A stretch of 64,000 nucleotides of DNA from Naegleria gruberi (taxonomy: Eukaryota). Below the pieces are notes generated by a model. That model was not told the origin of the DNA, made no database searches, and saw nothing but the letters and a program-made list of their open reading frames with translations. The DNA is taken from the NCBI GenBank assembly GCA_000004985.1, contig GG738848.1, one strand, 5' to 3'. A program made the translations under genes and the position numbers. Shown here piece by piece: positions 2,098 to 64,000 of this stretch; the first letter of the stretch is position 1; every line of letters begins with the position of its first letter.

Positions 2098-2243
2098 TCC
2101 CTTTGCTTTTTTTATGTGGAAATTTTTAGAAATCCATCAATAAAACTTTTTCATTTAAACACATCATGTTTCAAATTTGGAAAATATTCAAAAATGGAAA
2201 TTATAAAAATAGGTAAATTGGTTCTAGTAATTTTCCAAATATT

Positions 2244-2855
2244 TTAATATTTCAAAAATACTCCGAAAGGGAACGCTAATAGGGATAATAATGCAACATG
2301 TCTTTTAGCATTATCCCTTCCAATCACACTCAAATATAAAATTACAATACAAATCAACTCTATCGATGCAATAAACCATCCAAACATGCAAAACCAAACA
2401 AAATTACTCAAAATCATTAATAAACTCGTCTTTTCTCTCATAAACATTTGATCTTTGATAAATCCAATCGATCGTTCCTCAATTGACTTGTATTTTCTGT
2501 AGGGTTTCGATTTCTTTACGTTGAATAGAAGAAACTTGGCAATTTTCATCAATTGTAACGAACAAGGTAAACAAATCAATAGACAAGATAATATCCAACA
2601 CACAGAACACAAACCAAAAAAGATGAATGTAATAAATCCTAATCCTAAACTCAACCATCGACAATCCACTTGTGCATCTTGTTTTTGATGTTCTTCTTGT
2701 TGTTGTTGTTCTTTTTCTGACGATGGTTGAGGATCTTTTGTGTGATATTCAATGGTGGTGGACATTTCCTGCAATTCAATCTTGTCTTCATCAACATCCA
2801 TCTCCGAAGAAGAGGCATGTTGATCAACGTGAGCTGTATCTGATGATGCGGCCAT
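2244..2855 (-). CDS. Hypothetical polytopic membrane protein (203 aa)
   Basis: ATG at 2855 verified. Acidic/Q-rich N-terminus followed by about four hydrophobic, Cys-rich segments. No recognisable catalytic motif. Confidence 0.4.
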   Translation of the reverse strand: MAASSDTAHVDQHASSSEMDVDEDKIELQEMSTTIEYHTKDPQPSSEKEQQQQEEHQKQDAQVDCRWLSLGLGFITFIFFGLCSVCWILSCLLICLPCSLQLMKIAKFLLFNVKKSKPYRKYKSIEERSIGFIKDQMFMREKTSLLMILSNFVWFCMFGWFIASIELICIVILYLSVIGRDNAKRHVALLSLLAFPFGVFLKY

Positions 2856-2973
2856 TTTTTTATTCTACTTGTTACAATCATATCCATTATCATCCACAGT
2901 TTCATTGTTCGATTCTAATTGATGTGGGAGGGTTTATGACAATATGTTGGAGACTGTAAAGAGGGAATGTGAA

Positions 2974-46885: not shown

Positions 46886-47315
46886 TATGGTTGGGTGCAG
46901 TGGTGTTGTTGGATTTTTTTCTAGTTTAAATAAGGGTTGTTTGGAGTTGGAGTGTACTTGTGTACTTGTGATGTGCACAGCTGTGGTTTGCGCCCTTAGT
47001 AAAAGAGTTCTCTACCAAGAACCACAGTTAATTCTTGCTCTCTCTTTTTATTTCTATTCTTGGATAGATAAAGTTGGGATGATGTTGCGCTTGTGTAGAT
47101 TAATGAACACCATTTTCTTTCAATACCATCGTTCAAGAAAGACATTTCTAACTCAATTCTGAACTTTTAGGTCAGGTTATTCAGTTGTGGTGATGATTTG
47201 AATATCGGTCAATAATTCCCTCAGATATATGTTATACAGAGTTGTTGCCATCCTATTTATAATAGGAATTAAACAAGGAGAAATAAAAGGAGTGGTAATC
47301 TTATCAAATATTAGT

Positions 47316-47480
47316 TCAACAACTGATCTTACTTCCTCTTCTGAAGTTTCTGGTTGTAATTCTTTGAACAGATCGTAAAAATGTTGATTTAGCAGAATGG
47401 GACGATCCTAGTATTAGAATCTTGTTGAGAGTTGCATCATGATGTTGTCCTCGCTTGTAAATCGATTGGAATAAACCCAT
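47316..47480 (-). pseudogene. Orphan first exon of an Arf/G-alpha-like P-loop GTPase (N-myristoylation motif + Walker A); no downstream GTPase body found
   Basis: ATG at about 47480: MGLFQSIYKRGQHHDATLNKILILGSSHSAKSTFLRSVQRI... (Gly2, beta-strand + GxxxxGKST). None of the three frames between this exon and the next gene (about 46980) contains switch, DxxG or NKxD motifs. Confidence 0.3.
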
Positions 47481-47600
47481 TTTTATGATTAATATTTTGA
47501 TTAGTAGGTGGTTTATCATAAACTTTAGTTCTACCTGGAAAATGCTATCATATTGAAAAATAGTTTAGAATATTGATTTTATAAGATCTATCTTGTTTTA

Positions 47601-48836
47601 TCAGAGTGTTGAAAGGAAAATATCAGACAACCTCTCTGAATTAATCATTGTCAAAAGTTTAGTTTGACTCTCGCTCAAATGATACAAATCATTGAAATGT
47701 TTACATTGAAACCTTTCATTTCCTACATTCAATTTGAATGTCAGAGTTGAGTTTCCATTAACTAGTCCACTCATTGCAATCATAAATTCATTAGAATTCG
47801 AAACTCTACAATTCGTCTTGTAATCTATAAATTGTCCATTCTTTGTAAAGTATACCATTCCACTTTTTGTTGAATTCAAATCCCAATAAACTCCAATCGT
47901 ATCTCCCTTCTTAATTTGTGGACCTCCAACTCTATACGAAGAGTTTCGTTGTGAGTTTCGTAATCTTTGGTCGTCCGTATGGAATGCAACACTCTCACAG
48001 AACCATCCAATATGATTTTGCAAGTCATTGTCAGCTTTACCAAATCCTAAACAAATGGTAGGATTCGAATTGTTTTCAGTTTCTAATAGTGTCACTTCAT
48101 AATAACAGGCATGATTCATTGCAGAGATTGGTAGGGAACTGTAGAGATGGAAATTTGAGGAGTCATTGTCTTGATTCTTCAGTGTGAACAAATTGCTGGA
48201 ATAGTTTGCATTCCCAATTAGTTGTGTTTCCAATAAAATCGATTGCATACATCGGACCATTGTCGACGATTCGTCCACAATATAAGTATTTACATGATGA
48301 GGATTGAGGCTTCCAAATTCTTTACTATTTAGCAAGGAAAAATTCCTCTTGGAAAATTGTTTTCTTTTTTTTAATACAAAACTAGTAATATCCCTGTTTG
48401 GTTGCATACTATTTATGGAAGAATGGTCAACCTTGTAGGTCCTCCACTGTGGAACCATTTCACTACTTGAAGAAACTTGTTGGTGTGTTGAATGATGATC
48501 AAATGTAGTTATCACATCTTCAATGGAGGAAACAAGTTGTAGATTATTTCTTGGTGAAGTTGATGATTGATTATTAGAAAGGTTTCCAATAGTATTTTCT
48601 ATGGATTGTGTTTTTAGTTGAGGCAGTTGCTGTTGCTGCTGCTGTTGTTTTGTACTGTCTGTCATGGATTCATTTAAGTTATTTTTGTCTCCACCAGCAA
48701 TCCAAAAGGCAAAGAGTGAGCTTACTATCGAGTTCATATTATTAGTGTGATGTTGTTTTTTTTGTTTCGAATAAGAGCTTGCCTCTTCGTTTTGTCTCTT
48801 GAAAAGGAAAAGACAGTCTTCATGTAGGAAATACAT
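47601..48836 (-). CDS. SPRY (B30.2-like) domain protein with N-terminal hydrophobic anchor and poly-Q tract (411 aa)
   Basis: ATG verified. C-terminal about 170 aa: YYEVTLLETENN...ICLGFGKADNDLQNHIGWFCESVAFHTDD...GPQIKKGDTIGVYWDLNSTKSGMVYFTKNGQFI...FMIAMSGLVNGNSTLTFKLN matches SPRY beta-sandwich consensus. Confidence 0.65.
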   Translation of the reverse strand: MYFLHEDCLFLFKRQNEEASSYSKQKKQHHTNNMNSIVSSLFAFWIAGGDKNNLNESMTDSTKQQQQQQQLPQLKTQSIENTIGNLSNNQSSTSPRNNLQLVSSIEDVITTFDHHSTHQQVSSSSEMVPQWRTYKVDHSSINSMQPNRDITSFVLKKRKQFSKRNFSLLNSKEFGSLNPHHVNTYIVDESSTMVRCMQSILLETQLIGNANYSSNLFTLKNQDNDSSNFHLYSSLPISAMNHACYYEVTLLETENNSNPTICLGFGKADNDLQNHIGWFCESVAFHTDDQRLRNSQRNSSYRVGGPQIKKGDTIGVYWDLNSTKSGMVYFTKNGQFIDYKTNCRVSNSNEFMIAMSGLVNGNSTLTFKLNVGNERFQCKHFNDLYHLSESQTKLLTMINSERLSDIFLSTL

Positions 48837-48923
48837 TTATTGGACGAATTGTAAACAGTGCGCTCAAACAAGACTAAAAATACACAAACAGAAGTAAACA
48901 TTACATTTGGAAAGCACATTAAT

Positions 48924-50195
48924 TTAATGATTATTTTCTGTAGATGATGGAGCAATGGTCGAAATAGTTTCCTTCTCATTCAGTCCGACATGGAGTTCTG
49001 TAGAATCACGATTGTTATTCGAATCAACTACAGTTGCAGCATTTTGTAACTTTTCCACCTTATCCTTATATTGCTTTCTGTGTGAATAGTAAATAATTTG
49101 ACAGAAAATAAAAGTATCCAAGCAAACATTCAAATGAGTTTCGGCTAACCAAGGTAATCTAGTTAATAAATATTCACCATCACTAGAAAAAAGCCAAATT
49201 GAAATAAGGTAGAATAAATTACCAAAGATTGCCAAAATGAAAAAGACCTTTGAGAGACCTTCTGTGGATTGTCTCTTAAAGTTTTTGTAAATTTGAGGCC
49301 ACCTAGAGAACATGTACATGACTGAACAAATGCAACCAATAATGAAACCAACCATGGAAATGGTAGTGTTTGGAGGAAAGACAAAATCATTATGTTTTGG
49401 AACACCTTCTTGACCCTTAACAATCATCATGTGTTCTGGTTTGAGTGATTGTAATTTTCTACCAGTATTTTGATGAACAATTTGATTGTTGAGCTCATTT
49501 CTATTGGAAAGAACAAGGAATGAAATAACAAATATAACACTTGCCAGAATGGTAATGGTTGCAACTTTCAGCTTGGACTTGCTTTGACTATTGGGTAATA
49601 GGGAAACTTGATGAGAGGCATGTGAATCCTCATGATGTTGTTCATCATCGGAAAATATGATATGTTCCTCATCAGCAGCAGCATGGGTATCATTCAATTC
49701 AATAGTATTCACAAGATTTTCATCCTTCTTCTTCTTTGAAAACCACTTCTTCCAAAATCCCATATGCAACAGTGAGTAAAAGATGTATTGTCCAATAATT
49801 ACAACATCAACCATGACAAAATAAGTAGCCACAAATATCTGTGTCATTAATTGTCCAGACAATATACAAGCAATCATATTACAAGTATCTCCTATCGTTG
49901 ATGGTATCAAAAATCCAATAGAAAGCGAACTGGCATCCTTGTTTTTAAAATTGGCTATTATTTGTGGTAAAAGTGCTAAAATCCAACAAAATAACGATAA
50001 CATTCCAATGTAGAATGAAGCCTGTTCACGAGCACTATGTACACACTCTCCAAAAACAATGTAAATCCACTTGATGTATTGTATTCCTTCGGGATCAAAT
50101 TCTAAACATGATGCTGTTTCATTCAGCACGGATGATGAATTTTCGGCTATTGTTTGTTGGAGCCATGTTAGTATTGGTTCTTCAAGATGATTCAT
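48924..50195 (-). CDS. PQ-loop repeat (cystinosin/LCT family) lysosomal-type transporter (423 aa)
   Basis: ATG verified. Two PQ-loop repeats: ...LSLFCWILALLPQIIANFKNKDASSLSIGFL... and ...YMFSRWPQIYKNFKRQSTEGLSKVFFILAIFGNLFYLISI... Seven predicted TM helices. Confidence 0.75.
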   Translation of the reverse strand: MNHLEEPILTWLQQTIAENSSSVLNETASCLEFDPEGIQYIKWIYIVFGECVHSAREQASFYIGMLSLFCWILALLPQIIANFKNKDASSLSIGFLIPSTIGDTCNMIACILSGQLMTQIFVATYFVMVDVVIIGQYIFYSLLHMGFWKKWFSKKKKDENLVNTIELNDTHAAADEEHIIFSDDEQHHEDSHASHQVSLLPNSQSKSKLKVATITILASVIFVISFLVLSNRNELNNQIVHQNTGRKLQSLKPEHMMIVKGQEGVPKHNDFVFPPNTTISMVGFIIGCICSVMYMFSRWPQIYKNFKRQSTEGLSKVFFILAIFGNLFYLISIWLFSSDGEYLLTRLPWLAETHLNVCLDTFIFCQIIYYSHRKQYKDKVEKLQNAATVVDSNNNRDSTELHVGLNEKETISTIAPSSTENNH

Positions 50196-50423
50196 TTCTT
50201 TTCAGCTACTATTAATGAAAATTTTGGGTATTGAAAATATCAGCAAATGCTCAAAGATATTTTTTTTAAAGAATTTAATGAATTGTCTCATTTTGGAAAG
50301 GTAAAAAATCAATACGGGAATTGTTGAGAGGACCTTTTTTGGAGAATGGGTTTATTTTCGTTAGCCAATTGCTTTTTTGTTAATAATTAAATAGATTTTA
50401 TATACAGATAAAAATGATTGGAT

Positions 50424-53400
50424 TTATTTATTACTACTAATTTGCATACTTAAATGTCGATAAACTTCAAATAGATGGCATGTTTTGAATTCATCTGATA
50501 ATTGTAGTAACCATTCATAATCGCCTAATTTGTTTCCTTCTTGTGATTTGGCTCCTATGGCAGGAGTGATTTCAAGCATTTGTTTGAGAGGAATTTCAGA
50601 ATCGAGAGTTTCACTTGTAAAGTAGGAGAGAAGTAATTCTTTCATGGATGAAACTAGCATTGAACAATCGTCTGGAGAGAGGATATTCTTGAATTCATCG
50701 AGTTTTTGAACTAGCTCAGCAGGTAGAACCTTCTTGTACTTGTTGGCAATGGAGGAAGATTCAATAGAAGCACCTGGTGAGAGTTCATTCTCTAAGAGGG
50801 ACCACAAGGATACCAAATGGCATAACTTGACATGGACAATGATAGTATAACTCTTGGCAAGTGTTTGCTTTGTTACTTTTGGATCTACTAGAAGAATATT
50901 TTGAAGGTAGTCAATAATTGACATCTTTTCAACTTCCTCCAAATTGTTGGAACCAGAGATTGCTTGTAAGAATGAAATACACTCTTCAATTTGTCTAATG
51001 CAAGATTGGAACAAATCGAGTGAAGTCTCTCCACCTCTTAACTCTGAAACTATAGCTTGTTTCATATCTGTTGGTAATTCAACTTGTTTAATCTTGGACT
51101 TGAGCTCAGAAACTGGTCCTCCTACTTGGCCAAATCCACTTGAATATCTAGTTTCGTTAAGGAAGGTGAAATTCTCCAATTCCAATTTGATTTTCGGTTT
51201 TCCAGAAAGGTACTTGTTAACAATAAATTGTTCCACTCTTTGATAGTCAAACTTGTAAGAATTTTGCTTGTTGGTATCTTGGTCGAGTTCTGAATCAGTA
51301 ATGACAGGCATCACCTCTTCTTCAATATTAAAACTCACAAGATGATGTTTGCTAATGAAACGGCTAGAAATTTCAATTGGAGAAGATTCAGTGGACGTCT
51401 TGTTCAATAACTTGCCAGCTCTATCAATAATATCATTGTGCTTATCGACTAGGAATTGAATGAGAGCCAATGCACAAATTCCTTCATCTTGCTCATCTGG
51501 AATAGAGAAGGAAAGAGGTGTATCCTTACTCATACTAACATTCTTACACCATGCAGGCAGAGGTAAACATTGGTATCTTTCAATATATTTCCAACTGTGA
51601 TTGAATGATTTAGCCCAACCATCAAAGATCTTTTCAATAGATGCCTTCTCAGCTCCAAGTTGGAAGTGAATTGGTGACAAGGAAAGTGATGACATGAATT
51701 CTGAAAAGACATCTCTAACAGTTCTTGTTCTAGCATAGTGACGATCGATTCTTCTCGAGAAGGTATTGGTTACCAATTTTTGCCATTTCACAACATGAGG
51801 AATATATCTTGTTGGATAGAGTAAATGTTCATTTCTAATAAAGAGGCTCAAAATTGGATACTTTCTTTCTGCCTTATCTGCAATAAAGTATGATTTGAAT
51901 TGATCATAGGTAATTGGTGGCTTGATATTCCAAATTTGACTAATTGGATCAGAAAGTGGGAGAATAGGTTGTTTCAATTCTTGAGGTGCACCAGCTGAGG
52001 AAAAGAGTAGAATATTGGTTATTACATCATTGCCCTTCTTTTGGATGGAATCAAGTTGTTTGTAGTAGAGTTGATATTTCTTTGCAGCATTTTCTGTTAT
52101 CATTGTTACACATCCATTGAAGTGAGTTTCCCATCCAGATCTTCCTGCCTTTGTAGAAATGTCACGACTTGTGTATGGAAGTTTTGGATTGGTTCGTTTC
52201 TTTGTCTCCAACTGCTTGGAAGAGTAACTAAAGAATTCCAAAATATTAAACAAGAGAACACTGGCTTTCTCTTCATTTTGTCCTCCCAACAATTCACACA
52301 GAATACTCCAATCGTTCTTGATATGCCCGAGTAAGAATTCATTGAGATTGTCAACACTTGACATGGTCTTGTGGAAAACTTGTCTGTATTCCTCTTCTCT
52401 TTCTGGGAAGATTGAATTACCAACCAGTAAGAGGGAATGAATAATAAGTCTGATAATTCTGAACGATACTGGAGAAATTTCTCTTACTGTTGCAGCCAAG
52501 TCTCTTTCCTTAAAATGCTCATAAACAGCATAGCCCGTAGGTGCAATATCCTCATCCTGTTTAATCTTGTCGTTGGAGAAGTGAGGAACATGGTCAAATC
52601 CACCAATAGGTAATCCACACTCTGGACACATTGCAAATTCAGTTGGATATCCACAAGAATCGACTACATAAACATGGTTATTTGCACACTTGTACCAGGA
52701 GACAGTGCCATTATCAATTGTATTGATGACTTGTGTTCTGGCATCATCGGTAACACTTGGTAAGTATTTGTCTTTCAATGAAGATGGGTCGAACAATAAG
52801 AGCCACCAAAATTGATCTGTTACATAATTAGATAAGGCAACAGAACAAATGTGGTGAATAACGTGGACGAGTGTCAGATTTTCCAAAGTAGTATTCTCAT
52901 TAAGGAAGAAGAAACTATCCTCATTGAATGCATTGGAGGCAAACTTGATGGTCATGTGTACTTCCTTATCATCCCTCAAGACATGTTTGAGAAGGAAATT
53001 CTTGAGTTTGGTAATATCGATTGGACATGACTGAGTATTGACTTCATCCTCGGAGGTTAAAATCTTGGTGAATTTGTCCTTGTTAGAATTTTCAGAACAA
53101 TAGGACAAGTAGCACTTATCAACTACAGCAAGATAGCACAACTTCTTCAACGAATGAATATCTATTTGTTGTCCAGTATTGATGATTGCTTCTAGGGAGG
53201 CCTTGAGTTTGATAATAGACTCAGTCTTACTGTTGTAATCTCCTTGTTGTCTGAGACTCATAATCATGTCTACACAAGAGGCTAATTCTTCCAATCCATT
53301 CAACACGTGCATGAGTACATTTTGTGGAATATTGTCAGTGTACTTGAAACCTTGCAAGAGTGAAGAGACCCAAGGGAATTGTGGAGAAGCTCTAGAACGG

Positions 53401-56400
53401 AAAGTCTTGAGCAGGAATACTCTACCCTTTCTCTCAACAACTAATCTCAAAAGAACCATTTTGAGGAAGGAAAAGTTTGGTCTCTCAAATAAAGATAATA
53501 ATTGACGAGCTATTGGGCTAGATGAAATAAAATCCCTAATGGAATCACCTCTCTCCACTACTAGAATCAGTCTCTTTGAGAAGGTAGACATGGCACATCG
53601 TATTGCTGCTAGTAAATGGACATCCTTGATAATGTCTTTCCAAGAGGCAACGTCAACAAAATTGTCAGAGACAGATTCTAAAAGTTTAGATAATTGTTCT
53701 TCTGGTATGTTTTGAAGCACGGACTCATAAATAGACAAGTAGCTGATGAGTGTGCTTTGATCCAGAGATTCTGTCTTTGGACTGAGTTCTACTTTGAAAA
53801 TTTCCTTCAACTCTTCATTAACAAGTGGCTTGGTATTCTTATTGAGTAGGAGCTTTTTGAGAATGCTAACTTTGAGGTTTTGTGTTGCCTGCTTCATTAA
53901 TTGATTGAATTTTTCATTCTCTCCCTTGATAAGACCCATCAGTGCTCCAACAAGAGGTTTTTCAATGTCATCCTCTTTTCCAATTCTCCTCACAAGGAAT
54001 TTAGCTGTGAACATTTCAAAGAATCTAGTAATGTTGGTCTTTTTTCTACTTTCATCTGATTGGTTGGTTTTGTCGTTTTGAATATTATCTCCAATCTTGT
54101 TAACCAAATCTAAAAAGTATAATATCAAATCCAAACTACTTTGAGATGACAAACTCTTGGTTTTCATATTTTGCCATAAAATCATGGATATTTCCCTTAC
54201 AATACCGAGAGGAATTGCAATTTCTTGGAGGTACTCCTTGTAGAATTGAAGTTTTTGCCATTTTTCATGAATGTATCCAATATTCTTCAACATTGAACTT
54301 CTTGGGCCACCTGTCAAGTTTATAGTAGTACTGTGAATGAGAGTGATGAGTACTTCTACTGGGCTCTTAATATCTGTCAGTGTTTTGACCCAAATATTTC
54401 TTCTCTGGTTTGCAACAGTAATATCATGAGAGGTTTCAATATTTCTTGGATCCAAGTTATGATAAATAACACTAAAGAGCAGCATGTCAATCTCTTCAAT
54501 GGAAGATATTCTCAATGAAGGAACAAGAAGTTTTTGAAGGAACTTTCTCTGAAGAACAGACTTTGGGAAGGTTTCAAACAAGACATAATATGATTGAAGT
54601 CTTCTCTCCTGTCTCCAATAGAATGAAAGTATTTTAGCAATATTTGATCCTTCAGAAGGGTCTGCATCTAACATCTTTTTGATAATCTCATATTGTACCT
54701 CATTAGTTAACACTGTACACTGAACACCACAGATACACATGTAATCATAGAGGAAAAATTCAGAATATTCTCTTGGCAAGTTGTTCATGAAAGGATAGAT
54801 CATGTCAATATGCTTTTGTAAGGCCTCATAAACTCCCAATCTAGAACTTTCACATACACTTCTCCAGCTATGTAGATTTCTACAAACTTCGTAACTGAAA
54901 GGATATCTTGCTTGGAAAATTCTATTGTTATTACCATCACTCTTGACTTCTATTGGTTTCCATCTGAGTAGCTCAGCCATCGAAGATATTGTCTGTTCAT
55001 TTCGTGTTAACATGTGATTCACTGAAGGTCTCTTCAGGTCATCCAAAAGTTTAATCCACAAGTTTGTGCCTTCAGTTCTGTTGGTACTCTTGTATTCAAA
55101 GAAGAGTCTCAAATTGTCGTTTCTATCAATTTCAGCCAAAAGGAATGTAAATGATTTGATTAATATTCTCTCGACACAGTATTGAATAGCTGAGTGGTAT
55201 GTATTCACAACAAGGAAGTATTCGTTAATGTGGTTGGCTACATAGGTTGAGTAGAAGTTAATTTGATTTTGAGAAAAGTAGTCATGACAAATCTCCAAAA
55301 CCTTCTTGTTAATAACTTTCCAACATTCATCAGAATCAATGAGTTCGTTTGTTCTTGAAATTAAAAGAGTAATGTCATTAATTTTGGTATTGAATTTTCT
55401 TAGCATTGCCAGAGAGGTACGGAAGTTACTCTTAATAACTTGTCTCACATTAGTAGTTTGAATTTGTTCGGTGAATGGTCTGTTCAAAATTTCATAAATT
55501 GTAGTTTCTGTTGGTCTTATTTCATCAATAAATGCAAACTTCCATGGAATGTCAAATTCAATCAAGTGCTGACTGTTAATTGATTTTCCTGGAACAACAT
55601 TGATTAAGAGTAAAATGTTCTTTCCGACACTCTCACTAGGTGAGATACACTTTCTGTGCTTTTGGATTATAAACTTGGTTTGGTTCAAAAGGTCCAAATT
55701 CATATTTTCACATTGCAAAACAAGCAAGTGTTGTCCATTTGCTGAGGTAATTTTCTTTCCAAAGAATTGTTTTACAAGCTCTATTAATTCCATCTCTGAT
55801 TTGAGCTCAGCCATAGAAACAACAGAATGGTATTCTATGCTTGCTCCAATCTCTCTGGATGCCTGAATCAAGTTATCAATATTAATAGATACAGATGAAT
55901 AGGTAAGTAAACAAAGTTGGAAATATCCATAATAAATTAAGGAATTTGAAGACAGACCATTTTGAGATTGCTCTTGCAAAGAACCGAGCAAGAAATGAAG
56001 TAAATGAGGAAGGTCTCTGTGCTCTTGCTTTTCAAAATATGTTTTCAGATATTCCCTTGTTCTACTATTGTTGATAGAGGACATTCTAACCACAGCATCT
56101 GCAGTTGTAATCCACAATAGAGCATTCTTACAAATATCCAACAAGTAGTCATGGAGAGAAGGATCCTCAATTTGCTTGGTATCTAGTGATAAAACAAGCG
56201 ATTGAAGGAGTGATTTGTGAGTATTAACAAATGGTTTTTCATCATCACCAAAGGTTGTCTTGACCCACGATTGCAATCTACTGCACAAGTTCTTTACATT
56301 AACAGAGGCAGATTTGTCAAAGAGATCATCTCTGTGAAGTGTTTGCTTCTCAAATCTGTTGAGGAGTGGCTTGGCAAGTCGTGAGTAGGCATCGTCCTGA

Positions 56401-59400
56401 TCCACAATAACAATAACTCTAAAGTTCTTGTGAACAGAACAAATTCTACTGTATGTACCAAGTGAAATACCAACCACTCTATTCTCATCATACTCTATGT
56501 ATTGCAAATTGAACAAGTCGTAGAGACTTTCATATAATTGTTCACAATTTACCAAGACTACTGTTTTACCAGTTGACATGGCATTCTTAATTCTTTGAAT
56601 ATCCATACAAACCTGAAGTTCTTTAGTACTGTTAGGGAAGTTTGGACCAAAGACAACTTCTGCTTTATCATATGCAAGTAATTGTTTAAATTCTGAGAAG
56701 AGAATAGAGAGGGCAGCATTATTCTTTGTGAGTAGCATTAAATGTCTTGCCTTGGTATCGTTCAAATTTTCAGAAATATAATCCAACTTTGACTTCCTAT
56801 TGCTGATAATATTCATACCAACACAGGAGAAGAAGATATTCAAAACTCGAAGGAACTCTTCATTATTTGATCCTCCAAAGTTTCTGGCAAGAGCATCTGT
56901 GAGTAGCTCTGGTGAGAGTGTACCGTCAAAGTTTCTGTTAATAAACTTGACAGTGTGGTAAAAATCTCTCAATCCGAAAAAGTCCTTTCTTTGTTGACCA
57001 TTATATACATCATGGTAAGCCTTGGCCAAAGAATAGAGAGTACTGTCTAAATGCACAGAATTTACAATACCAGACAAGGTAGTTTTGAGTTCAAATGTTG
57101 AAGGTGAAGGTCTGGTCAAATAGACTGCTCTATTGATAAGGTTAGGATCCAATGTCCAGTTAGAAAGACCAATCACAGAGACAGAGCAATCCTCTTCCAA
57201 TTCCTTATTGACAACTTTGAGTGGATGGGAAGAACTATGTTCTAACAAGCCAACCTCGTTCAATAAAACTATGGCAATAGAATTTGGAGAATTCTTCTGA
57301 TATCTCTTGGCAGATTCAAAGCAACTCTTGACGCTCTCAGGTGTGGAAATTTGTGAACATTGATAAGTGAATATTTCAAGAGAAGGCAATGAGCGTAAAA
57401 AACTATTGACACTGGCTGTTCCATTGAGATTAGTGCTCAAAATCTCTAAACTCAATGACTTGGAAGAGCCACTCTTGCCATTGATGAATATTGGAATCCT
57501 ATTCAGTACACAAACAAGGGTCATGAAAATATTTTCTCGCAGAGCATGATTAAGTGCCACTCCCTTTGGAATGTTCAAGTGCATCGTGTAGTATCTTTGT
57601 TCTTCTGTGAGAGTATTGATAAAGTCACCCTTTTGATAGGAAAAGTAGGAAGCAATTTTGCTTCTTGAAGAGGTGAATAAATCTTCCAACTCCTTCACAA
57701 ATTCATCACGCTTGGAACTCAATCTGTGGTAATAACAATGTCCAAGAGAAAGTATGATAGAGTTCTTGATAATAAAGTTTGATTCCTCTAGGAAAAAGGT
57801 AGGATCAATACCATTTCTCTTTGAGAGTGATTGATAAAAGCTCTTGAATAAGTTAATGCAACGTTTAACATCTCTCAGATTCACAGCACTTCTTTCCATA
57901 TAAACCTTTCTAATGAATGATTGAGAGGCAAATATGAGCTCTGTAAAGCAATCAAAGAAGAGTCCAGACTTTCCGATATCCTCAACATTGATTTCCATGA
58001 GTAGAATGGCTCTAATGTATAACTGTTCAATAATAGGATTCAAAGAGCCAAAGTTAAATACATGATCCAAAATAGAGACAGGCATTGGATATACCTTATA
58101 GATAAGACATTGTGAAAAAACTTGAATATCCAAACCTGTGGTTCTTTGGAGGGCTCTAATATTGTCTTTCAAAATATCAGATTTTTGACCAGAGGAACCA
58201 TATTCAATGTCTGTTCCAGCATATCTTCTCAGTCTGTATGGATTACAGGAGGCAACAATCTTCAAATTTCTAGGTAGCACCTTATTATGAACACAATTGT
58301 CACAAATTAATTCTTTAAATAATCCTAAATTATTAGAGGTGTTTACCTTGTCAAAGAAGGCTATAATCTCCTTCTTTGGATTGAGTCTGGCTTCTGCAAT
58401 GAGCGGATTCAACCAATTCAAAATATCATTAGATGTGTGACCTTCATTCACAGCAAATCTCTTCAACTTTATACCAAGAACAGAGCACAAGTATTTGGTT
58501 AGTTCTGATTTACCAACACCACTATCACCACAAAGAATTGTAGGTAAATTGTATTTCATCTTGTGATAAATCATCAATACCTTGCTCAAATTATCTACAG
58601 TGAGAACGTAATTATTGCTGATTTTCTTTTCATTGGTTTCATCCTGTTTCAAGCCAGCAACATTTCTAATAATTTCTTGAGCCCTATCATGAGATAAATC
58701 TCTTGGGGTCTCCAAGTCTATACCATTACATGAAAGAGAGTATTTTAACTCTTCATTAAGTTCGAGCTTGTCAGTATTGATACCAATAAGATCAATTCCT
58801 GTTATTTCATTAATGTTACTTCTATAGAAAACAACTAGAGGATGTTGAGATGCTTGCTCCTCCCACTTGCTTAATCTATGTTCAAACATTTCGACATATT
58901 GGAGAAGTAAAATCTCAGTGTATGGTTTTCCTTCATACTTCTTAGCAAGCGAAATAATAAAGTCCTTTTCAACAGAAATAGCTGTTAAATCCCTTGCTGA
59001 CTTGATCATTAAATCAATCATGGCGTGTTTGAATAATTGCATGCTTCCTTCCATAACACAATTTTTAAAGCAAACATATCTAGAAGTGCTCAAAAATTGC
59101 CCATACAAGAATCGTACAAAATTGTTCACCACAGAGAAGGAGGCATTGTCAGGTTTGAATCCAGTGTACTTGCACAACAGCTTGAAGCAAGCTTTCAGAC
59201 TCAAGTCTGGTGCCTTTACAGGATCAAAATCTGGTACGCTAGGAGCTGCATTCTTGAATACATTCTCCTCGAAGGCTTTCAAAAATTTACAAACATATTG
59301 TACCTTATTATCATCTGTGCACATAATATCAATACTATCATCTTCCATGTTAATAAGTTCATAGTTTACCAATTCCAGACTTGATTCATCTGTAGTTATT

Positions 59401-62400
59401 TCTTCAATTGGCAAAGCAGTGCAAAAGTAAACAAATTCACTCAAAATTGGCACACAAAGACTATTTGGAATCTCGATATAGAATTGGATATTTGGAACAA
59501 TATGGAAAACACTTGCAGTTTCTCTGTCTCTAACACAACCAAGATAGAACAATTCAAATAACAAGGAATTCATGTGCTTTGGTATTATGTTACAGAGAGC
59601 AAGATGGAAAGCAATTTCTTTTCCTTGATTTTGATTTGTTGTTTTCCAGAGTAGGCCAACTATTTCTTTCACTGTTGAATCTTCTAATACAGTTACTCTA
59701 CTGTATTTCTTCTTATTCAAATAGATATCCTTCAGGATAAATCTAGACTTTCCTGCACCAGTTCTATTGGAGGTAACACATTTGACATTGGATCCTTGGT
59801 ATGATTTCATTATATTTACAATATACTTCTTTGGAAGAGTTTTGAAGGACTTGTCAACATAGTTTGAAAATTCCAACAAGAGACGAGCATTGTTGTTATC
59901 TGAACCACCAATAAGAACTAGTTTTCCAGTATTTTCCTTTTTAGAGAGGGATGAAAGAATTTCCTGTATCTTGAGAAGCATTTTAGATTGAACAATGTAT
60001 GGAAGTTCTTGAATATTGGCAATGCAATACATGTTATCACGCTTTTCTTTCACCTTGGAGTTTAACCATCTATTCAAAATCAACTCGATATCCTCCATAT
60101 CAGTGCTAAAAGAGTTGCACAGCAAAACTTCCTCACTCAAAGGAAGTCTTCCACGTAGTGAGTATAAGGAAATGATAGCATCCATAACTTCCTTCTCCTT
60201 TTGAAGTTTGATAATCTTGAAAACTCCATCAAATGTATTTAACGAATATTTAGATTGGACATTGGTTGGCAATTCATACTGCGATTTTCTATAAGAATTT
60301 TCTCTTCTAGAAAAGATGCTTTCAATAAAGGAGCATAACTTTCTCATCTTCTCTTCAGCTGCACAATCGGTAACAAAGTCCAAATTGAGAACGGTAATGC
60401 AGTTTTCAATGTCAGACAGCTCTAGGTTATGATCACCAAGTTTAAGAATGGATAACAAATCATAGATGGATGATCTCTCAGAATCTTGTTGATATTTCTT
60501 AAGTAATTCGTAGACTCTCAAAGATTCCTTTGCTCTAAAAAGATTCATATAGTAATTTCCATTCCTCGAGTTCTCTGTTATCTTCTTCCATTTTTCTAAT
60601 TTTTCTAGTAATTCAGCATGATACTTTTGAATATATTCAGGAGAACACTCTGAAGCTCTTATGGCCTTGAAGTAGTTTTCTTGGAATTCAAAGTGAGCTT
60701 GTTTGCATAAATCCAGCAAGGATGCCTTGATATCCAACATTAGAGTAATACATCTTACAAAAAGATTAATCCTAGAATTAACATCATCCAACGTTTTGAT
60801 ATTGTCTGGTATTTCGCTCAACATTAACTTATTTCTCAACTCTACAAGTCCATCAATAGTCATAACCTGTTGTTGTAAACTTAATCTTCTTATTTGGGAG
60901 GTATTCATAATTGGATGTGATGGCATAATCTTACATAGAATGACACTAGGATCAGCCAAATTAAATTCATACTGTCCTCTTTCTGTAATAGCTGCAAGAT
61001 CGTAGAGAGCCTGAACACCTCCACTTCTTGTTTTCTCTTCAAACATGCTGAGGAGAAGTGTGAAATTCTTCTTCAAGTTACTCAACTGAGACAAGTCATC
61101 ATTACTAATTTCCAACTTGGTCATTGAATTCTTAAAATTTTCCAAGCTAATAAAATTAATATTTGCATGGTCAACTTGATTCGAATAGATAAAGTCAGAA
61201 ATACAATCCCTGACAACCACCAAACTTTTCAAGGATTGTAAAATCTTTACCGAGTCAGTATAACTCTTACAAATCTCTACAAGGTTATCAAATTCAGAAT
61301 TGGATTTGTAATTTAATAGCCAGTCTATAATAGAAAATCCTGTACTATCACATAGTAATTTCATGAAGGAAAGTTGATTATCGTTAAATCCTTTAAAAAA
61401 TCTAGTAAACAAGAGTAGGTTAAAGTTACTCTTTTGGTCTTCAAACATTGCCAATGTTTGGCTTTCAAGCATACTTTGTTGATTGAGAGTGTTGGACTCT
61501 TTCTTTAATTGAATATAATCAGTGTCTTTCTTTAAATCAATAGTAAAGTACGGCTCAAAATGTTCAACTAATAAGAGAAGAGAAGGTAAATAGGATCTAT
61601 AGAGATTAATCTTTTCGAAGCTATTGATAATATTCAACCTCTTGGATACCCATTCAAGATCTTCCTTGTTAGGAGTTCTATCTGACGATTTTCCATTAAA
61701 GGTCATTCTCACACTCAGCAACTCTTCTTGATATTGGACATTAGTGCTGGATAGTAAACTGTCAACTCTATTCTCATATCTACACTTTCTCAGGATTGAA
61801 TAAAACTCGTTCAATTTGATTGAGAGAGAATCGATTGACTTGTAAAATCCCAGCCACTTATTCTTTACATCTGGAACCAACTTATTCTTGATAGAATCGA
61901 TGGTGTGTTTTTCATTATTGGAAGCTTTTGTGTAGAGATCCCTCCACAAAACAAGGAAAAACTCTGAGGTTCTCAACTCGTAGAAGAAAGCCAACTCTTC
62001 AAATCCAAATGGAATGAGCTCGGATACTTGCTTTTGAATCTTTTTAAATACCATTTCTCCCATATTTCTTCTAATTTTGATGATGGTATCTAACACTAGA
62101 CTAGTATCAAAAAAGTTTGGATCATCAGCAAACATGGTCAAGAAATTCTGGGCTGCATCAAGAGTAGTCTTGAAAGAAAGCAACTCTTGTCTCAATTGTT
62201 TTACATGAGATTCATTGAATCCAACATCTCCCATCAAGTATACCAATTTCATGAACTGAGCTTCGTGTTTCAAGACCATGTGAAGAGTTGATATGGTGCA
62301 TGTCTTGTCCAATAATTGGAACACAAGTTTGAAGTAAATGTCCATCAGGGCGGAAACTTCTGTTTGGATCTTGGTAAAGTTCTCATTGCCCGAATTCTTT

Positions 62401-63965
62401 TCAGTATTCTTGATAAACTTGAAAAAGTGGTAGCACAGAGGATTTTTAACGATGGTCTCATAGCTTTGTTGTAAGTTAGAAGACAATAGCAATGTCTTTA
62501 GGAAAACCAAACTAATGTCCTCATCTACAACATGAGTAATAATCTCGAACAGTAGGACGGCCTCCTTGCTGGTTGCACTCTGAGTGATGAATTGGCAACA
62601 CTTATCAATAATGTAACTCTTCAGAGTGTTGGAAAACATGCTTCCCTTGAATCTTCCCATAAATTCTATATATTCAAAAGCAGAGAGGGAAACAAAGAAT
62701 GGTGTCAACATTAATTCGTCAAGCAAGACATGTACATATTCCTTCAAAAAGTTTAACTTGACCAATCTATCAATAAAGAGTAGGAAATTCTCTAACTTCA
62801 TTGTGTTCTGTTGACTTTGAAGAAGGAACAAGAGTGAGGTGGAATTTCTTTTTGATTGGCTGCTGGTGACTTCTTTAGAATCACTTGACTCCACAATTCT
62901 GATGTTGTGGGTAAAGATGTGAATGAGCCAACGTTTTGTTCCATCAAATAATCTGAAGTATCCTTGGATTGAATTGGCTTGATTGATGTTCATTTGAATA
63001 TTTTCTAATAGATTGGCAATCTCATTCAAATCATTTTCGGTATTGATTTCTGCAACCACTGGAGATTGAATCATACAATAAATAATCTCTTCATTTGGGA
63101 GCAAGTTACACATTTGAAATATGGTATCCAAGTCTCTTCTAGTGTTAACCAAATCTGAATTAAAGCTCTGAAGTTGATACCTGTTATTGAGTTCCTTGAT
63201 CTTTTTCTTTAAACATTGAAAAACTGTTGATCTGATCTTTTGTGAATTGTCATGATAAATTAATGAATGGTCCTTCATCTTCTTTATCAATGCCAAGAGA
63301 GATTGGAAGCTTGGAGCATTTGAAATTAATCTTTGAATATCTAGAGAAATTTTCTTTTCCTTCTCTGAATTAAAAATTTCCTTCTCAAAAACTTCATTCA
63401 TTTGCTCAATATTTTCACAACTTGTATAGTCAATCATGTTTTCAGAGGAATTCTTTTCAGAGCTGAATAATTCTTCGTCAGATGAAGAGTTTGAATCAGA
63501 TGTTACAACATCTTCCTCTAGAATAGGTTTTGATTTGACTTTTGGAAGTTGTTTTGGAGAAGCTGTAATCATTCTATCCCTTGAACGAGCATCCTTCTCA
63601 GAGGGAGAACTTGGTGGAGTATTTGGCGATTGATATCCAGTCGTGTTATTATTGTTATTGGAAGGAAATGGATGAAATTGATTTCCAGCCACTGTAGTTG
63701 GTGTATTAGATCCAAAATATCCACTATAATCCTCCATAGATGTACTAGTTGTGTTGGTAGAGATGGATCCAGTTGTGGAAATTTCAATTTCCTCCTCACT
63801 TGTTGTGTAAATAAATGGAATATTCATATCTAGGTTATGAGTGAAAGAACCCTTAAATGATCCACTACTACTCGTTGATGAGAACATTTTGATTGGAAGT
63901 GTCGATTGTTGATGGCCACTGTGCAATAAGCTGTCTCCAAAAATACCCTCTCCACTGTGTTGCAT
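50424..63965 (-). CDS. RNF213-like giant AAA+ ATPase with C-terminal RZ-type zinc finger (at least 4513 aa, single exon, 5' end probably beyond window)
   Basis: 13.5-kb uninterrupted ORF, TAA stop at 50424. ATG at 63965, but the frame stays open upstream to the window edge. S/T/N-rich disordered N-terminus. At least three Walker-A modules (SNRTGAGKSRF, CGDSGVGKSELT, INGKSGSSKSLS) in a dynein-like AAA core. About 600 aa from the C-terminus: YKCANNHVYVVDSCGYPTEFAMCPECGLPIGGFDHVPHF, the RZ-finger signature shared by RNF213/ZNFX1. No RING finger found by eye. Confidence 0.8.
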   Translation of the reverse strand: MQHSGEGIFGDSLLHSGHQQSTLPIKMFSSTSSSGSFKGSFTHNLDMNIPFIYTTSEEEIEISTTGSISTNTTSTSMEDYSGYFGSNTPTTVAGNQFHPFPSNNNNNTTGYQSPNTPPSSPSEKDARSRDRMITASPKQLPKVKSKPILEEDVVTSDSNSSSDEELFSSEKNSSENMIDYTSCENIEQMNEVFEKEIFNSEKEKKISLDIQRLISNAPSFQSLLALIKKMKDHSLIYHDNSQKIRSTVFQCLKKKIKELNNRYQLQSFNSDLVNTRRDLDTIFQMCNLLPNEEIIYCMIQSPVVAEINTENDLNEIANLLENIQMNINQANSIQGYFRLFDGTKRWLIHIFTHNIRIVESSDSKEVTSSQSKRNSTSLLFLLQSQQNTMKLENFLLFIDRLVKLNFLKEYVHVLLDELMLTPFFVSLSAFEYIEFMGRFKGSMFSNTLKSYIIDKCCQFITQSATSKEAVLLFEIITHVVDEDISLVFLKTLLLSSNLQQSYETIVKNPLCYHFFKFIKNTEKNSGNENFTKIQTEVSALMDIYFKLVFQLLDKTCTISTLHMVLKHEAQFMKLVYLMGDVGFNESHVKQLRQELLSFKTTLDAAQNFLTMFADDPNFFDTSLVLDTIIKIRRNMGEMVFKKIQKQVSELIPFGFEELAFFYELRTSEFFLVLWRDLYTKASNNEKHTIDSIKNKLVPDVKNKWLGFYKSIDSLSIKLNEFYSILRKCRYENRVDSLLSSTNVQYQEELLSVRMTFNGKSSDRTPNKEDLEWVSKRLNIINSFEKINLYRSYLPSLLLLVEHFEPYFTIDLKKDTDYIQLKKESNTLNQQSMLESQTLAMFEDQKSNFNLLLFTRFFKGFNDNQLSFMKLLCDSTGFSIIDWLLNYKSNSEFDNLVEICKSYTDSVKILQSLKSLVVVRDCISDFIYSNQVDHANINFISLENFKNSMTKLEISNDDLSQLSNLKKNFTLLLSMFEEKTRSGGVQALYDLAAITERGQYEFNLADPSVILCKIMPSHPIMNTSQIRRLSLQQQVMTIDGLVELRNKLMLSEIPDNIKTLDDVNSRINLFVRCITLMLDIKASLLDLCKQAHFEFQENYFKAIRASECSPEYIQKYHAELLEKLEKWKKITENSRNGNYYMNLFRAKESLRVYELLKKYQQDSERSSIYDLLSILKLGDHNLELSDIENCITVLNLDFVTDCAAEEKMRKLCSFIESIFSRRENSYRKSQYELPTNVQSKYSLNTFDGVFKIIKLQKEKEVMDAIISLYSLRGRLPLSEEVLLCNSFSTDMEDIELILNRWLNSKVKEKRDNMYCIANIQELPYIVQSKMLLKIQEILSSLSKKENTGKLVLIGGSDNNNARLLLEFSNYVDKSFKTLPKKYIVNIMKSYQGSNVKCVTSNRTGAGKSRFILKDIYLNKKKYSRVTVLEDSTVKEIVGLLWKTTNQNQGKEIAFHLALCNIIPKHMNSLLFELFYLGCVRDRETASVFHIVPNIQFYIEIPNSLCVPILSEFVYFCTALPIEEITTDESSLELVNYELINMEDDSIDIMCTDDNKVQYVCKFLKAFEENVFKNAAPSVPDFDPVKAPDLSLKACFKLLCKYTGFKPDNASFSVVNNFVRFLYGQFLSTSRYVCFKNCVMEGSMQLFKHAMIDLMIKSARDLTAISVEKDFIISLAKKYEGKPYTEILLLQYVEMFEHRLSKWEEQASQHPLVVFYRSNINEITGIDLIGINTDKLELNEELKYSLSCNGIDLETPRDLSHDRAQEIIRNVAGLKQDETNEKKISNNYVLTVDNLSKVLMIYHKMKYNLPTILCGDSGVGKSELTKYLCSVLGIKLKRFAVNEGHTSNDILNWLNPLIAEARLNPKKEIIAFFDKVNTSNNLGLFKELICDNCVHNKVLPRNLKIVASCNPYRLRRYAGTDIEYGSSGQKSDILKDNIRALQRTTGLDIQVFSQCLIYKVYPMPVSILDHVFNFGSLNPIIEQLYIRAILLMEINVEDIGKSGLFFDCFTELIFASQSFIRKVYMERSAVNLRDVKRCINLFKSFYQSLSKRNGIDPTFFLEESNFIIKNSIILSLGHCYYHRLSSKRDEFVKELEDLFTSSRSKIASYFSYQKGDFINTLTEEQRYYTMHLNIPKGVALNHALRENIFMTLVCVLNRIPIFINGKSGSSKSLSLEILSTNLNGTASVNSFLRSLPSLEIFTYQCSQISTPESVKSCFESAKRYQKNSPNSIAIVLLNEVGLLEHSSSHPLKVVNKELEEDCSVSVIGLSNWTLDPNLINRAVYLTRPSPSTFELKTTLSGIVNSVHLDSTLYSLAKAYHDVYNGQQRKDFFGLRDFYHTVKFINRNFDGTLSPELLTDALARNFGGSNNEEFLRVLNIFFSCVGMNIISNRKSKLDYISENLNDTKARHLMLLTKNNAALSILFSEFKQLLAYDKAEVVFGPNFPNSTKELQVCMDIQRIKNAMSTGKTVVLVNCEQLYESLYDLFNLQYIEYDENRVVGISLGTYSRICSVHKNFRVIVIVDQDDAYSRLAKPLLNRFEKQTLHRDDLFDKSASVNVKNLCSRLQSWVKTTFGDDEKPFVNTHKSLLQSLVLSLDTKQIEDPSLHDYLLDICKNALLWITTADAVVRMSSINNSRTREYLKTYFEKQEHRDLPHLLHFLLGSLQEQSQNGLSSNSLIYYGYFQLCLLTYSSVSINIDNLIQASREIGASIEYHSVVSMAELKSEMELIELVKQFFGKKITSANGQHLLVLQCENMNLDLLNQTKFIIQKHRKCISPSESVGKNILLLINVVPGKSINSQHLIEFDIPWKFAFIDEIRPTETTIYEILNRPFTEQIQTTNVRQVIKSNFRTSLAMLRKFNTKINDITLLISRTNELIDSDECWKVINKKVLEICHDYFSQNQINFYSTYVANHINEYFLVVNTYHSAIQYCVERILIKSFTFLLAEIDRNDNLRLFFEYKSTNRTEGTNLWIKLLDDLKRPSVNHMLTRNEQTISSMAELLRWKPIEVKSDGNNNRIFQARYPFSYEVCRNLHSWRSVCESSRLGVYEALQKHIDMIYPFMNNLPREYSEFFLYDYMCICGVQCTVLTNEVQYEIIKKMLDADPSEGSNIAKILSFYWRQERRLQSYYVLFETFPKSVLQRKFLQKLLVPSLRISSIEEIDMLLFSVIYHNLDPRNIETSHDITVANQRRNIWVKTLTDIKSPVEVLITLIHSTTINLTGGPRSSMLKNIGYIHEKWQKLQFYKEYLQEIAIPLGIVREISMILWQNMKTKSLSSQSSLDLILYFLDLVNKIGDNIQNDKTNQSDESRKKTNITRFFEMFTAKFLVRRIGKEDDIEKPLVGALMGLIKGENEKFNQLMKQATQNLKVSILKKLLLNKNTKPLVNEELKEIFKVELSPKTESLDQSTLISYLSIYESVLQNIPEEQLSKLLESVSDNFVDVASWKDIIKDVHLLAAIRCAMSTFSKRLILVVERGDSIRDFISSSPIARQLLSLFERPNFSFLKMVLLRLVVERKGRVFLLKTFRSRASPQFPWVSSLLQGFKYTDNIPQNVLMHVLNGLEELASCVDMIMSLRQQGDYNSKTESIIKLKASLEAIINTGQQIDIHSLKKLCYLAVVDKCYLSYCSENSNKDKFTKILTSEDEVNTQSCPIDITKLKNFLLKHVLRDDKEVHMTIKFASNAFNEDSFFFLNENTTLENLTLVHVIHHICSVALSNYVTDQFWWLLLFDPSSLKDKYLPSVTDDARTQVINTIDNGTVSWYKCANNHVYVVDSCGYPTEFAMCPECGLPIGGFDHVPHFSNDKIKQDEDIAPTGYAVYEHFKERDLAATVREISPVSFRIIRLIIHSLLLVGNSIFPEREEEYRQVFHKTMSSVDNLNEFLLGHIKNDWSILCELLGGQNEEKASVLLFNILEFFSYSSKQLETKKRTNPKLPYTSRDISTKAGRSGWETHFNGCVTMITENAAKKYQLYYKQLDSIQKKGNDVITNILLFSSAGAPQELKQPILPLSDPISQIWNIKPPITYDQFKSYFIADKAERKYPILSLFIRNEHLLYPTRYIPHVVKWQKLVTNTFSRRIDRHYARTRTVRDVFSEFMSSLSLSPIHFQLGAEKASIEKIFDGWAKSFNHSWKYIERYQCLPLPAWCKNVSMSKDTPLSFSIPDEQDEGICALALIQFLVDKHNDIIDRAGKLLNKTSTESSPIEISSRFISKHHLVSFNIEEEVMPVITDSELDQDTNKQNSYKFDYQRVEQFIVNKYLSGKPKIKLELENFTFLNETRYSSGFGQVGGPVSELKSKIKQVELPTDMKQAIVSELRGGETSLDLFQSCIRQIEECISFLQAISGSNNLEEVEKMSIIDYLQNILLVDPKVTKQTLAKSYTIIVHVKLCHLVSLWSLLENELSPGASIESSSIANKYKKVLPAELVQKLDEFKNILSPDDCSMLVSSMKELLLSYFTSETLDSEIPLKQMLEITPAIGAKSQEGNKLGDYEWLLQLSDEFKTCHLFEVYRHLSMQISSNK

Positions 63966-64000
63966 TCCCTGTGATGATGTTGGGAATATAAATCCACTAT

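Follow-up and report, generated by a model that had tools for sequence, protein, structure and literature searches.

The giant gene and its reading frame

The 64,000-nucleotide stretch of contig GG738848.1 from the heterolobosean amoeba Naegleria gruberi (GenBank assembly GCA_000004985.1), referred to here as the window, carries on its minus strand a giant gene encoding a member of the RNF213 family. RNF213 is the main gene that confers susceptibility to moyamoya disease, as well as a broad antimicrobial E3 ubiquitin ligase. Every module of the Naegleria protein is homologous to RNF213 and the architecture of the family is present in full; nevertheless, the protein fails two nominal features of the family, a RING domain and canonical Walker B motifs. 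The locus had first been described, in an initial annotation made from the sequence, as a single-exon RNF213-like open reading frame (ORF) of more than 4513 aa with multiple Walker A modules and an RZ finger, no obvious RING, and an N-terminus lying beyond the window.

One unbroken frame occupies window positions 50424-64000 (-), comprising 4524 sense codons followed by TAA (translation 63998->50424); in the first-ATG ORF listing the same frame appears as 50424..63965 (-), 4513 aa. The chance of 4524 stop-free codons is approximately 1e-147 at the local base composition, and ORFs in the other five frames reach 171 codons at most. The giant ORF is thus real and uninterrupted throughout the window, and remains open past the ATG at 63965 to the window end, as initially described. 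Its translation matches, without any difference, the final 4524 residues of the annotated 4882-aa protein XP_002682051.1/EFC49307.1 (locus NAEGRDRAFT_56792, UniProt D2V1H3), which turned up in the 90% cluster of P0001, a C-terminal fragment. The gene is therefore already in public databases, under the automatic name 'RZ-type domain-containing protein'. The 358 N-terminal residues of this protein fall outside the window and its annotated start lies 1074 nt past the window end; the ATG at 63965 is consequently internal, and the earlier placement of the N-terminus outside the window was correct. An exact-product look-up with the 4513-aa ORF gave no match, because the true product is longer. Residues are given below as t, the position in the translation begun at base 63998; the corresponding residue of full-length XP_002682051.1 is t + 358. 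The full protein has a mass of about 560 kDa. Two other ORFs in the window are exact matches to the N. gruberi NEG-M proteins XP_002682041.1 and XP_002681903.1.

The frame is also preserved in independent sequence. A metagenome contig (L001; ENA ERZ929261, run ERR1078381) is 98.8% identical at the DNA level over window positions 45888-56149 and keeps the frame intact, including across the site where other family members carry their RING; at this identity, a very close relative of N. gruberi must be present in that sample. A second contig (L002), from another Naegleria species, encodes a collinear orthologue of 4928 aa with 67% identity to the N. gruberi protein and 90% identity to N. lovaniensis XP_044552988.1. 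The frame is intact over approximately 4900 codons in both species. Comparison of the N. gruberi protein with this orthologue gave a proportion of nonsynonymous differences (pN) of 0.20 against a saturated synonymous value (pS) of 0.82, with similar values in every domain, indicating purifying selection along the whole chain. The orthologue contains one 54-nt GT-AG intron (L002 8910-8963) between VINHFV and ELLYGQ, whereas N. gruberi is uninterrupted at the equivalent site, window 59114/59115 (t1628|t1629; VVNNFV|RFLYGQ). Within this 14-kb gene, an intron has been gained or lost between the two congeners.

Domain architecture and family membership

The protein was compared with all PDB sequences by phmmer, and relatives were collected by an exhaustive HMMER homologue search (706 hits at E<=1e-3); word-indexed searches had returned 2, 4 and 3 proteins, and the homologue set was taken from the exhaustive search. 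The PDB matches were RNF213 chains exclusively, from human and mouse (E=6e-166 to 5e-153, human best), which bears out the assignment to this family. They cover two stretches, namely the AAA core and the region from the RZ finger onward. The AAA core forms a single collinear alignment of t1268-2668 to 7oik_A (chain 1799-3259) and 9g08_A (chain 1879-3341; domain E=5e-120). By our own construct-offset estimate this corresponds to approximately native mouse 1786-3246, with a start close to the AAA1 border at 1775. The published borders of mouse RNF213 are 1775-3405 for the AAA units, 3406-3588 for the hinge, 3589-4926 for the E3 module and 3940-3999 for the RING, followed by the C-terminal domain (CTD; PMC7311170). 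A profile built from 11 relatives found by the exhaustive search (profile A1) carries the match on through AAA6, so that all six AAA units are collinear with RNF213. Downstream, t3733-4441 aligns to human 9g08_A (chain 4507-5165; E=2e-43), and the last 324 aa alone match the CTD region of human RNF213 (E=6e-7).

The middle of the protein is barely detected by single-sequence search. Searched against PDB, profile A1 aligns collinearly with human RNF213 over the hinge and E3 module in a single stretch (E=4.5e-73). An AlphaFold2 (AF2) model of t2660-3850 has a mean predicted local distance difference test score (pLDDT) of 73.5, with values of 80-93 over most of its first 890 residues. When this model was searched against PDB with Foldseek, the top seven matches were all RNF213 cryo-electron microscopy structures (E=3e-17 to 6e-13), with a template modelling (TM) score of approximately 0.5 (TMq 0.48-0.52) over approximately 1250 columns at 12-14% identity; the first match outside these seven had E=1e-3.

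Upstream of the AAA core, jackhmmer on a small sequence set aligns t544-1299 to fish rnf213-beta 927-1756 and to the N-arm regions of homologues from protists. The mammalian N-arm stalk carries a CBM20 domain; in t1-1270, neither CBM20 nor any other Pfam domain was detected, and no PDB sequence matches there. The Ser/Asn/Thr-rich N-terminus (t1-400) continues the 358 out-of-window residues, which are likewise of low complexity and without matches. Coordinates are collected in Table 1.

Table 1. Features of the giant gene and neighbouring genes in the 64,000-nucleotide window
Feature	Window coordinates	Strand	Evidence or remarks
In-window part of NAEGRDRAFT_56792 (XP_002682051.1 residues 359-4882)	50424..64000	-	Single exon within window; TAA = 50424-50426
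N-terminal region, Ser/Asn/Thr-rich, low-complexity (t1-400)	62799..63998	-	Composition; no PDB/Pfam match; 61% identity to Naegleria sp. orthologue
N-arm + linker (t401-1267)	60198..62798	-	jackhmmer; P0011 aligns from t408; no Pfam match
Dynein-like core, six AAA units AAA1-AAA6 (t1268-2830)	55509..60197	-	phmmer, profile A1
AAA2 P-loop TGAGKS (t1413-1418)	59745..59762	-	Aligned to human AGVGKS
AAA3 Walker A GDSGVGKS (t1824-1831; Lys t1830)	58506..58529	-	Aligned to human GETGCGKT
AAA3 Walker B IAFFDK (t1879-1884)	58347..58364	-	Aligned to human FFDEAN
AAA4 Walker A GKSGSSKS (t2174-2181; Lys t2180)	57456..57479	-	Aligned to human GKPGSSKS
AAA4 Walker B IVLLNE (t2243-2248)	57255..57272	-	Aligned to human VVLDEV
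Hinge + E3 module: E3 back, shell, core scaffold (t2831-3725)	52824..55508	-	Profile A1, AF2, Foldseek
Empty RING slot, linker KIGDNIQNDKTNQSDESRKK (t3301-3320)	54039..54098	-	20 residues, no Cys/His
RZ finger (t3763-3809)	52572..52712	-	Pfam PF20173, 55.9 bits vs cut-off 27, E=3e-15
Rest of E3 module + C-terminal domain (t3810-4524)	50427..52571	-	phmmer
SPRY-domain protein	47604-48836	-	
PQ-loop transporter	48927-50195	-	
DUF4116-repeat protein	45428-46978	-	
Ubiquilin (UBL-STI1-UBA)	34787-36385	+	
F-box + Ras/Roc GTPase fusion	28017-29228	+	
1708-aa DEAD/H helicase	20853-25976	-	

The Naegleria protein shares its module order with mammalian RNF213 (mysterin; 6tax, 7oik, 8s24, 9g08) along the whole chain. 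Also common to both are P-loops in AAA2, AAA3 and AAA4, an identical spacing of RZ ligands and dyad, and an E3 scaffold without other structural relatives. It differs in having no RING, in reading DK (AAA3) and NE (AAA4) at Walker B where mammals have DE and DE, and in its long, low-complexity N-terminus, in which no CBM20 was detected. E3 module identity is only about 12-14%, and the E2-contact residues of the CTD are not recognizably conserved.

Other families share single elements with the protein. ZNFX1 carries the same type of RZ finger, and P0163 and P0164 are ZNFX1 matches; ZNFX1 itself is a superfamily 1 RNA helicase with NFX1-type zinc fingers and a Miz domain, none of which is found by Pfam in the Naegleria protein with its six-unit AAA core. 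Membership of ZNFX1 was rejected given the lack of helicase and NFX1 Pfam domains, while the true ZNFX1 matches carry PF13086 and PF13087. A transthiolating logic, documented for RNF213 in the literature, in which the ubiquitin-conjugating enzyme (E2) hands ubiquitin to a cysteine of the E3 ahead of the substrate, may be shared with MYCBP2 (RING-Cys-relay) and with RBR/HECT ligases, without any kinship of sequence or fold. MYCBP2 and RBR ligases recruit their E2 through a RING, which the Naegleria protein lacks. Dynein and midasin/Rea1 also have six AAA units in one polypeptide (PMC7311170), and dynein gives weak Foldseek matches arising from the AAA6 part of the Naegleria model. Unlike these proteins, the Naegleria protein has neither a microtubule-binding stalk nor a MIDAS domain, and its C-terminal half is an RNF213 E3 module.

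The RZ finger

The RZ motif quoted in the initial annotation, CANNHVYVVDSCGYPTEFAMCPECGLPIGGFDH, lies at t3771-3803 (window 52590-52688) within a confident PF20173 domain. In mouse RNF213, C4451/H4455/C4471/C4474 are the zinc ligands of the RZ finger and C4462/H4483 form its catalytic dyad, which carries ubiquitin; the CTD and E3 shell serve as docking surface for the E2 (PMC12075652). The predicted zinc ligands of the Naegleria finger are C3771, H3775, C3791 and C3794, and the predicted dyad is C3782/H3803 (t numbering; C3782 is C4140 of the full-length protein). The Cys/His spacing of +4, +7, +9, +3 and +9 is that of mouse C4451/H4455/C4462/C4471/C4474/H4483, and recurs in 109 of the 111 RZ matches among the homologues. 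An alignment of 42 RZ domains (A2) shows no variation at C46, H50, C57, C66 and C69, and conservation of at least 90% at the last His. The domain is modelled at pLDDT 91-97 as a helix followed by five short strands, in agreement with the published description; fold-library searches with the RZ domain model were uninformative.

The empty RING slot

The RING is absent from the Naegleria protein. In mammals, this domain, after which the family is named, has a C4HC3 motif and is inserted between the last two helices of the E3 back (PMC7311170). The two helices that flank it are joined in Naegleria by a 20-residue linker. The initial failure to find a RING is upheld by four approaches in agreement. 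By regular expression, no C3HC4-like pattern occurs in the whole protein, and no Cys or His lies between t3244 and t3461. No Pfam RING was found at E<=1 in N. gruberi, its orthologue, P0011, P0012, Hematodinium P0021 or P0040, and no Pfam RING or U-box at E<=0.01 in the Naegleria slot; as a positive control, Pfam RING families were found in the equivalent stretch of fish rnf213-beta. Multiple alignment with MAFFT reveals conserved flanks, W-x-n-m/l ... L-x-x-L upstream and RFFE-x-F downstream, between which RING-bearing relatives have an insert of 70-100 residues and Naegleria only its linker. For the downstream flank, jackhmmer retrieved four sequences, and MAFFT with anchoring on the upstream flank was used instead. 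In the alignment of profile A1 with the human protein, the human RING is an insert between profile positions 620 and 621. Finally, the AF2 model depicts the slot as a short low-confidence loop between long helices 627-647 and 654-676. The orthologues of Naegleria sp. and N. lovaniensis share this architecture, with the slot likewise empty.

Substitutes for the RING were also considered. Replacement by a U-box was rejected, since there is no U-box match and the linker has only 20 residues. A cryptic zinc site at C3621/C3629/C3634/C3658 was rejected given that it fits no RING pattern, its fourth Cys is gone in the orthologue and it is not found in P0011. A Cys/His-rich segment in the E3 scaffold (CRNLHSWRSVC...CICGVQC; t3039-3094, window about 54717-54884) lies approximately 250 residues upstream of the slot. 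The first of its cysteines is common to the orthologue, P0011, P0012 and P0013 and is not found in more distant homologues; as a cryptic zinc site the segment was likewise rejected for fitting no RING pattern.

The contents of the slot vary across the family. A RING occupies it in P0015, P0056 and the fish, bird and bivalve proteins. P0022 has a RING recognized by a C4C4-like motif read by eye, without a Pfam match, and P0121 has two RINGs in tandem. In P0035, P0019, P0043, P0116 and P0030, a U-box (PF04564; E 1e-17 to 1e-9) stands where vertebrates have the RING. The slot is empty in many other homologues, and the absence of a RING is therefore not unique to Naegleria, RING-less relatives being common in the RNF213 family. 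The frog protein P0100 (XP_068089245.1, 'RNF213-like') is not informative for RING status: the segment approximately 800 aa upstream of its RZ finger, at the expected place of a RING, looks by eye like a hAT transposase (for example, VIDVSTRWNSALAMLERLLEQW). P0100 may be a chimeric gene model or contain an inserted transposon.

Nucleotide-binding motifs of the AAA core

Three P-loops were identified in the AAA core (TGAGKS at t1413, GDSGVGKS at t1824 and GKSGSSKS at t2174), in line with the multiple Walker A modules first reported, and the Walker A lysines of both AAA3 and AAA4 are kept. Canonical Walker B motifs are lost in the Naegleria clade in both of these units, the two that are competent for hydrolysis. 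In AAA3, Lys t1884 takes the place of the catalytic Glu (human E2488); the motif reads FFDK in N. gruberi, FFDR in the orthologue and DQ in P0011, P0012 and P0013, against DE in 14 other homologues with a detectable motif. In AAA4, Asn t2247 takes the place of Asp; LLNE is found in N. gruberi, the orthologue, P0009, P0011 and P0012, against DE in 25 other sequences with a detectable motif. The Walker B columns of the phmmer alignment have top posterior probability. Because the Walker A lysines are kept and the Walker B motifs read DK and NE, the AAA core is predicted to be an ATP-binding switch, its ring probably binding ATP and hydrolysing it poorly or not at all.

Distribution and evolution

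RNF213 has been called a vertebrate protein in the structural literature (PMC7311170), and the published trace of the RZ domain to choanoflagellates concerns that of ZNFX1 only. In full-text searches of the literature, no paper was found on RNF213 relatives outside animals (protists) or on this locus tag. Among the homologues, Heterolobosea are represented by Naegleria spp. and Pharyngomonas kirbyi (Transcriptome Shotgun Assembly, TSA, GECH01), and Rhizaria by Amorphochlora amoebiformis (P0047). The dinoflagellate Hematodinium sp. (TSA GEMP01) has two full-length, RING-less proteins, P0021 and P0145, of 4837 and 5019 aa; the family has therefore been duplicated in protists. Animal members come from a bivalve, fishes, a frog and a bird. 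One Pharyngomonas sequence (P0007; GECH01011079.1) is an RNF213-like AAA/E3 fragment ending in a Cdc73-like domain (precomputed PF05179), and is probably a chimeric transcript assembly.

Three metagenome sequences, P0011, P0012 and P0013, are RNF213-like giants that share features with the Naegleria protein. The alignment of P0011 to it runs unbroken between t408 and t4486. All three have an empty slot and, with DQ in AAA3, lack the AAA3 Glu as Naegleria does; P0011 and P0012 also share NE in AAA4. In contrast, other protist and invertebrate giants combine a RING, tandem RING or U-box in the slot with canonical DE Walker B motifs. A crude neighbour-joining (NJ) tree of the AAA4-6 block, unrooted (drawn with a midpoint root) and without support values, places N. 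gruberi, its orthologue, P0011, P0012 and P0013 in a wholly RING-less clade, with RING- and U-box-bearing sequences scattered outside it. Repeated loss of the RING or U-box seems more likely than repeated gain, given that both occupy one identical slot, though the direction of change is left undecided because the tree is unrooted and lacks support values.

Proposed mechanism and alternative explanations

The N. gruberi protein is probably a transthiolating E3 ligase that depends on the RZ finger, is gated by ATP binding and operates without a RING route. Its chain begins with a disordered N-terminus and a helical N-arm, continues with six fused AAA units in a ring and then a hinge, and ends with the E3 scaffold, the RZ finger and the CTD. 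The E3 module would offer, in its C-terminal part, the docking site for ubiquitin-charged E2, and ubiquitin would move to the RZ-finger cysteine t3782 (full-length C4140), helped by His t3803, before being passed from this cysteine to the substrate. Nucleotide binding at AAA3 and AAA4 would gate activity allosterically, with the AAA core acting as an ATP-binding switch of little or no hydrolysis. With neither a RING nor a U-box in the protein, the E2 would have to be engaged entirely by a non-RING route, which is already sufficient in mammals. The mammalian RING is dispensable for both autoubiquitination and lipid A ubiquitination, and mouse mutants in the Walker A motifs of AAA3 or AAA4 lose E3 activity, while Walker B E->Q mutants keep it (PMC12075652; PMC7311170). 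From these parallels we infer enzymatic activity, ATP gating and a lack of hydrolysis for the Naegleria protein; as to its biological role, the leading guess, by analogy, is protection from bacteria or viruses inside the cell. In cnidarians, activated immune cells show induction of RNF213.

Several observations weigh against this mechanism. The surface for E2 docking is its weakest link: the residues of mouse RNF213 that contact UBE2L3 (F5093, W5097, D5101, Y5106 and E5108) belong to the last approximately 80 residues, which phmmer leaves unaligned, and in the MAFFT alignment the W5097 column holds I, S or A in protist homologues. Formation of the pathogen coat in mammals requires ATP hydrolysis (PMC11549300). 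The Walker B changes may abolish hydrolysis, and cellular behaviour may therefore differ substantially from that of the mammalian protein. The neighbouring genes, moreover, give no pointer to function.

In a different explanation, the protein retains the RNF213 architecture as a large nucleotide-bound scaffold or adaptor that is inert as an ATPase and possibly also as an E3. The non-canonical Walker B motifs (DK and NE) in the only hydrolysis-competent units, the missing RING and the poor conservation of the mouse-defined E2-contact residues would all be expected of such a pseudo-enzyme. It would be harder to reconcile with the RZ finger, whose zinc ligands and Cys/His dyad are strictly kept at exact spacing, with the retention of both Walker A lysines, or with purifying selection on all domains. 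Furthermore, neither the RING nor the Walker B Glu is needed for the E3 activity of the mouse protein (PMC12075652), and an inert scaffold is thus considered improbable. More remote still is an artefact of assembly or annotation, whereby mis-assembly or a collapsed region would have created the long ORF or removed the RING; no sign in favour of this was found. The independent metagenome contig, 98.8% identical and with its frame kept across the slot, and the shared architecture and empty slot of the Naegleria sp. and N. lovaniensis orthologues leave such an error a negligible chance.

A separate alternative concerns the history of the slot and not the activity of the protein. The original AAA-RZ ligase may have had no RING, with RINGs and U-boxes inserted later, including in animals, in which case Naegleria has lost nothing. 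The slot is empty in several branches, among them the Naegleria clade, both Hematodinium paralogues, Amorphochlora and P0040, and the catalytic route works without a RING (PMC12075652). However, RINGs and U-boxes occupy this one slot, flanked by the same pair of helices, both in animals and in the protist-like P0015 (which groups with Pharyngomonas), P0022 and P0035/P0019, which lie apart in the NJ tree, and repeated loss is simpler than repeated insertion at one site. An ancestrally RING-less ligase is therefore regarded as possible but rather unlikely.

Neighbouring genes

The genes for the SPRY-domain protein and the PQ-loop transporter lie directly downstream of the giant ORF, and several of the neighbouring ORFs belong to the ubiquitin system (Table 1). 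No tRNA genes were detected in the whole window.

Implications for the RNF213 family

The whole RNF213 architecture is present in a heterolobosean amoeba, with relatives in dinoflagellates, Rhizaria and molluscs. Across these proteins the RING position is exchangeable, holding a RING, a tandem RING, a U-box or nothing, while the RZ finger is constant; this provides independent support for the RZ route as the core mechanism of the family. The Naegleria clade also supplies natural equivalents of laboratory Walker B mutations, and hence a comparative test of the contributions of ATP hydrolysis and ATP binding. Amoebae, Naegleria among them, naturally host Legionella and chlamydiae, which makes the amoebal RNF213 an obvious candidate for an ancestral form of antibacterial ubiquitylation. 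A bolder and distinctly speculative proposal, on present evidence unlikely, is that RNF213-type ligases constitute an ancient, pan-eukaryotic system of cell-autonomous defence. Naegleria would then hold a natural minimal version, lacking both RING and ATP hydrolysis, that marks intracellular bacteria, chlamydiae or giant viruses by RZ-mediated ubiquitylation, possibly of lipids or glycans, with the AAA ring as a purely ATP-binding sensor. If true, RNF213-style immunity would be older than animals, with the RING and the ATPase cycle as dispensable additions of later date.

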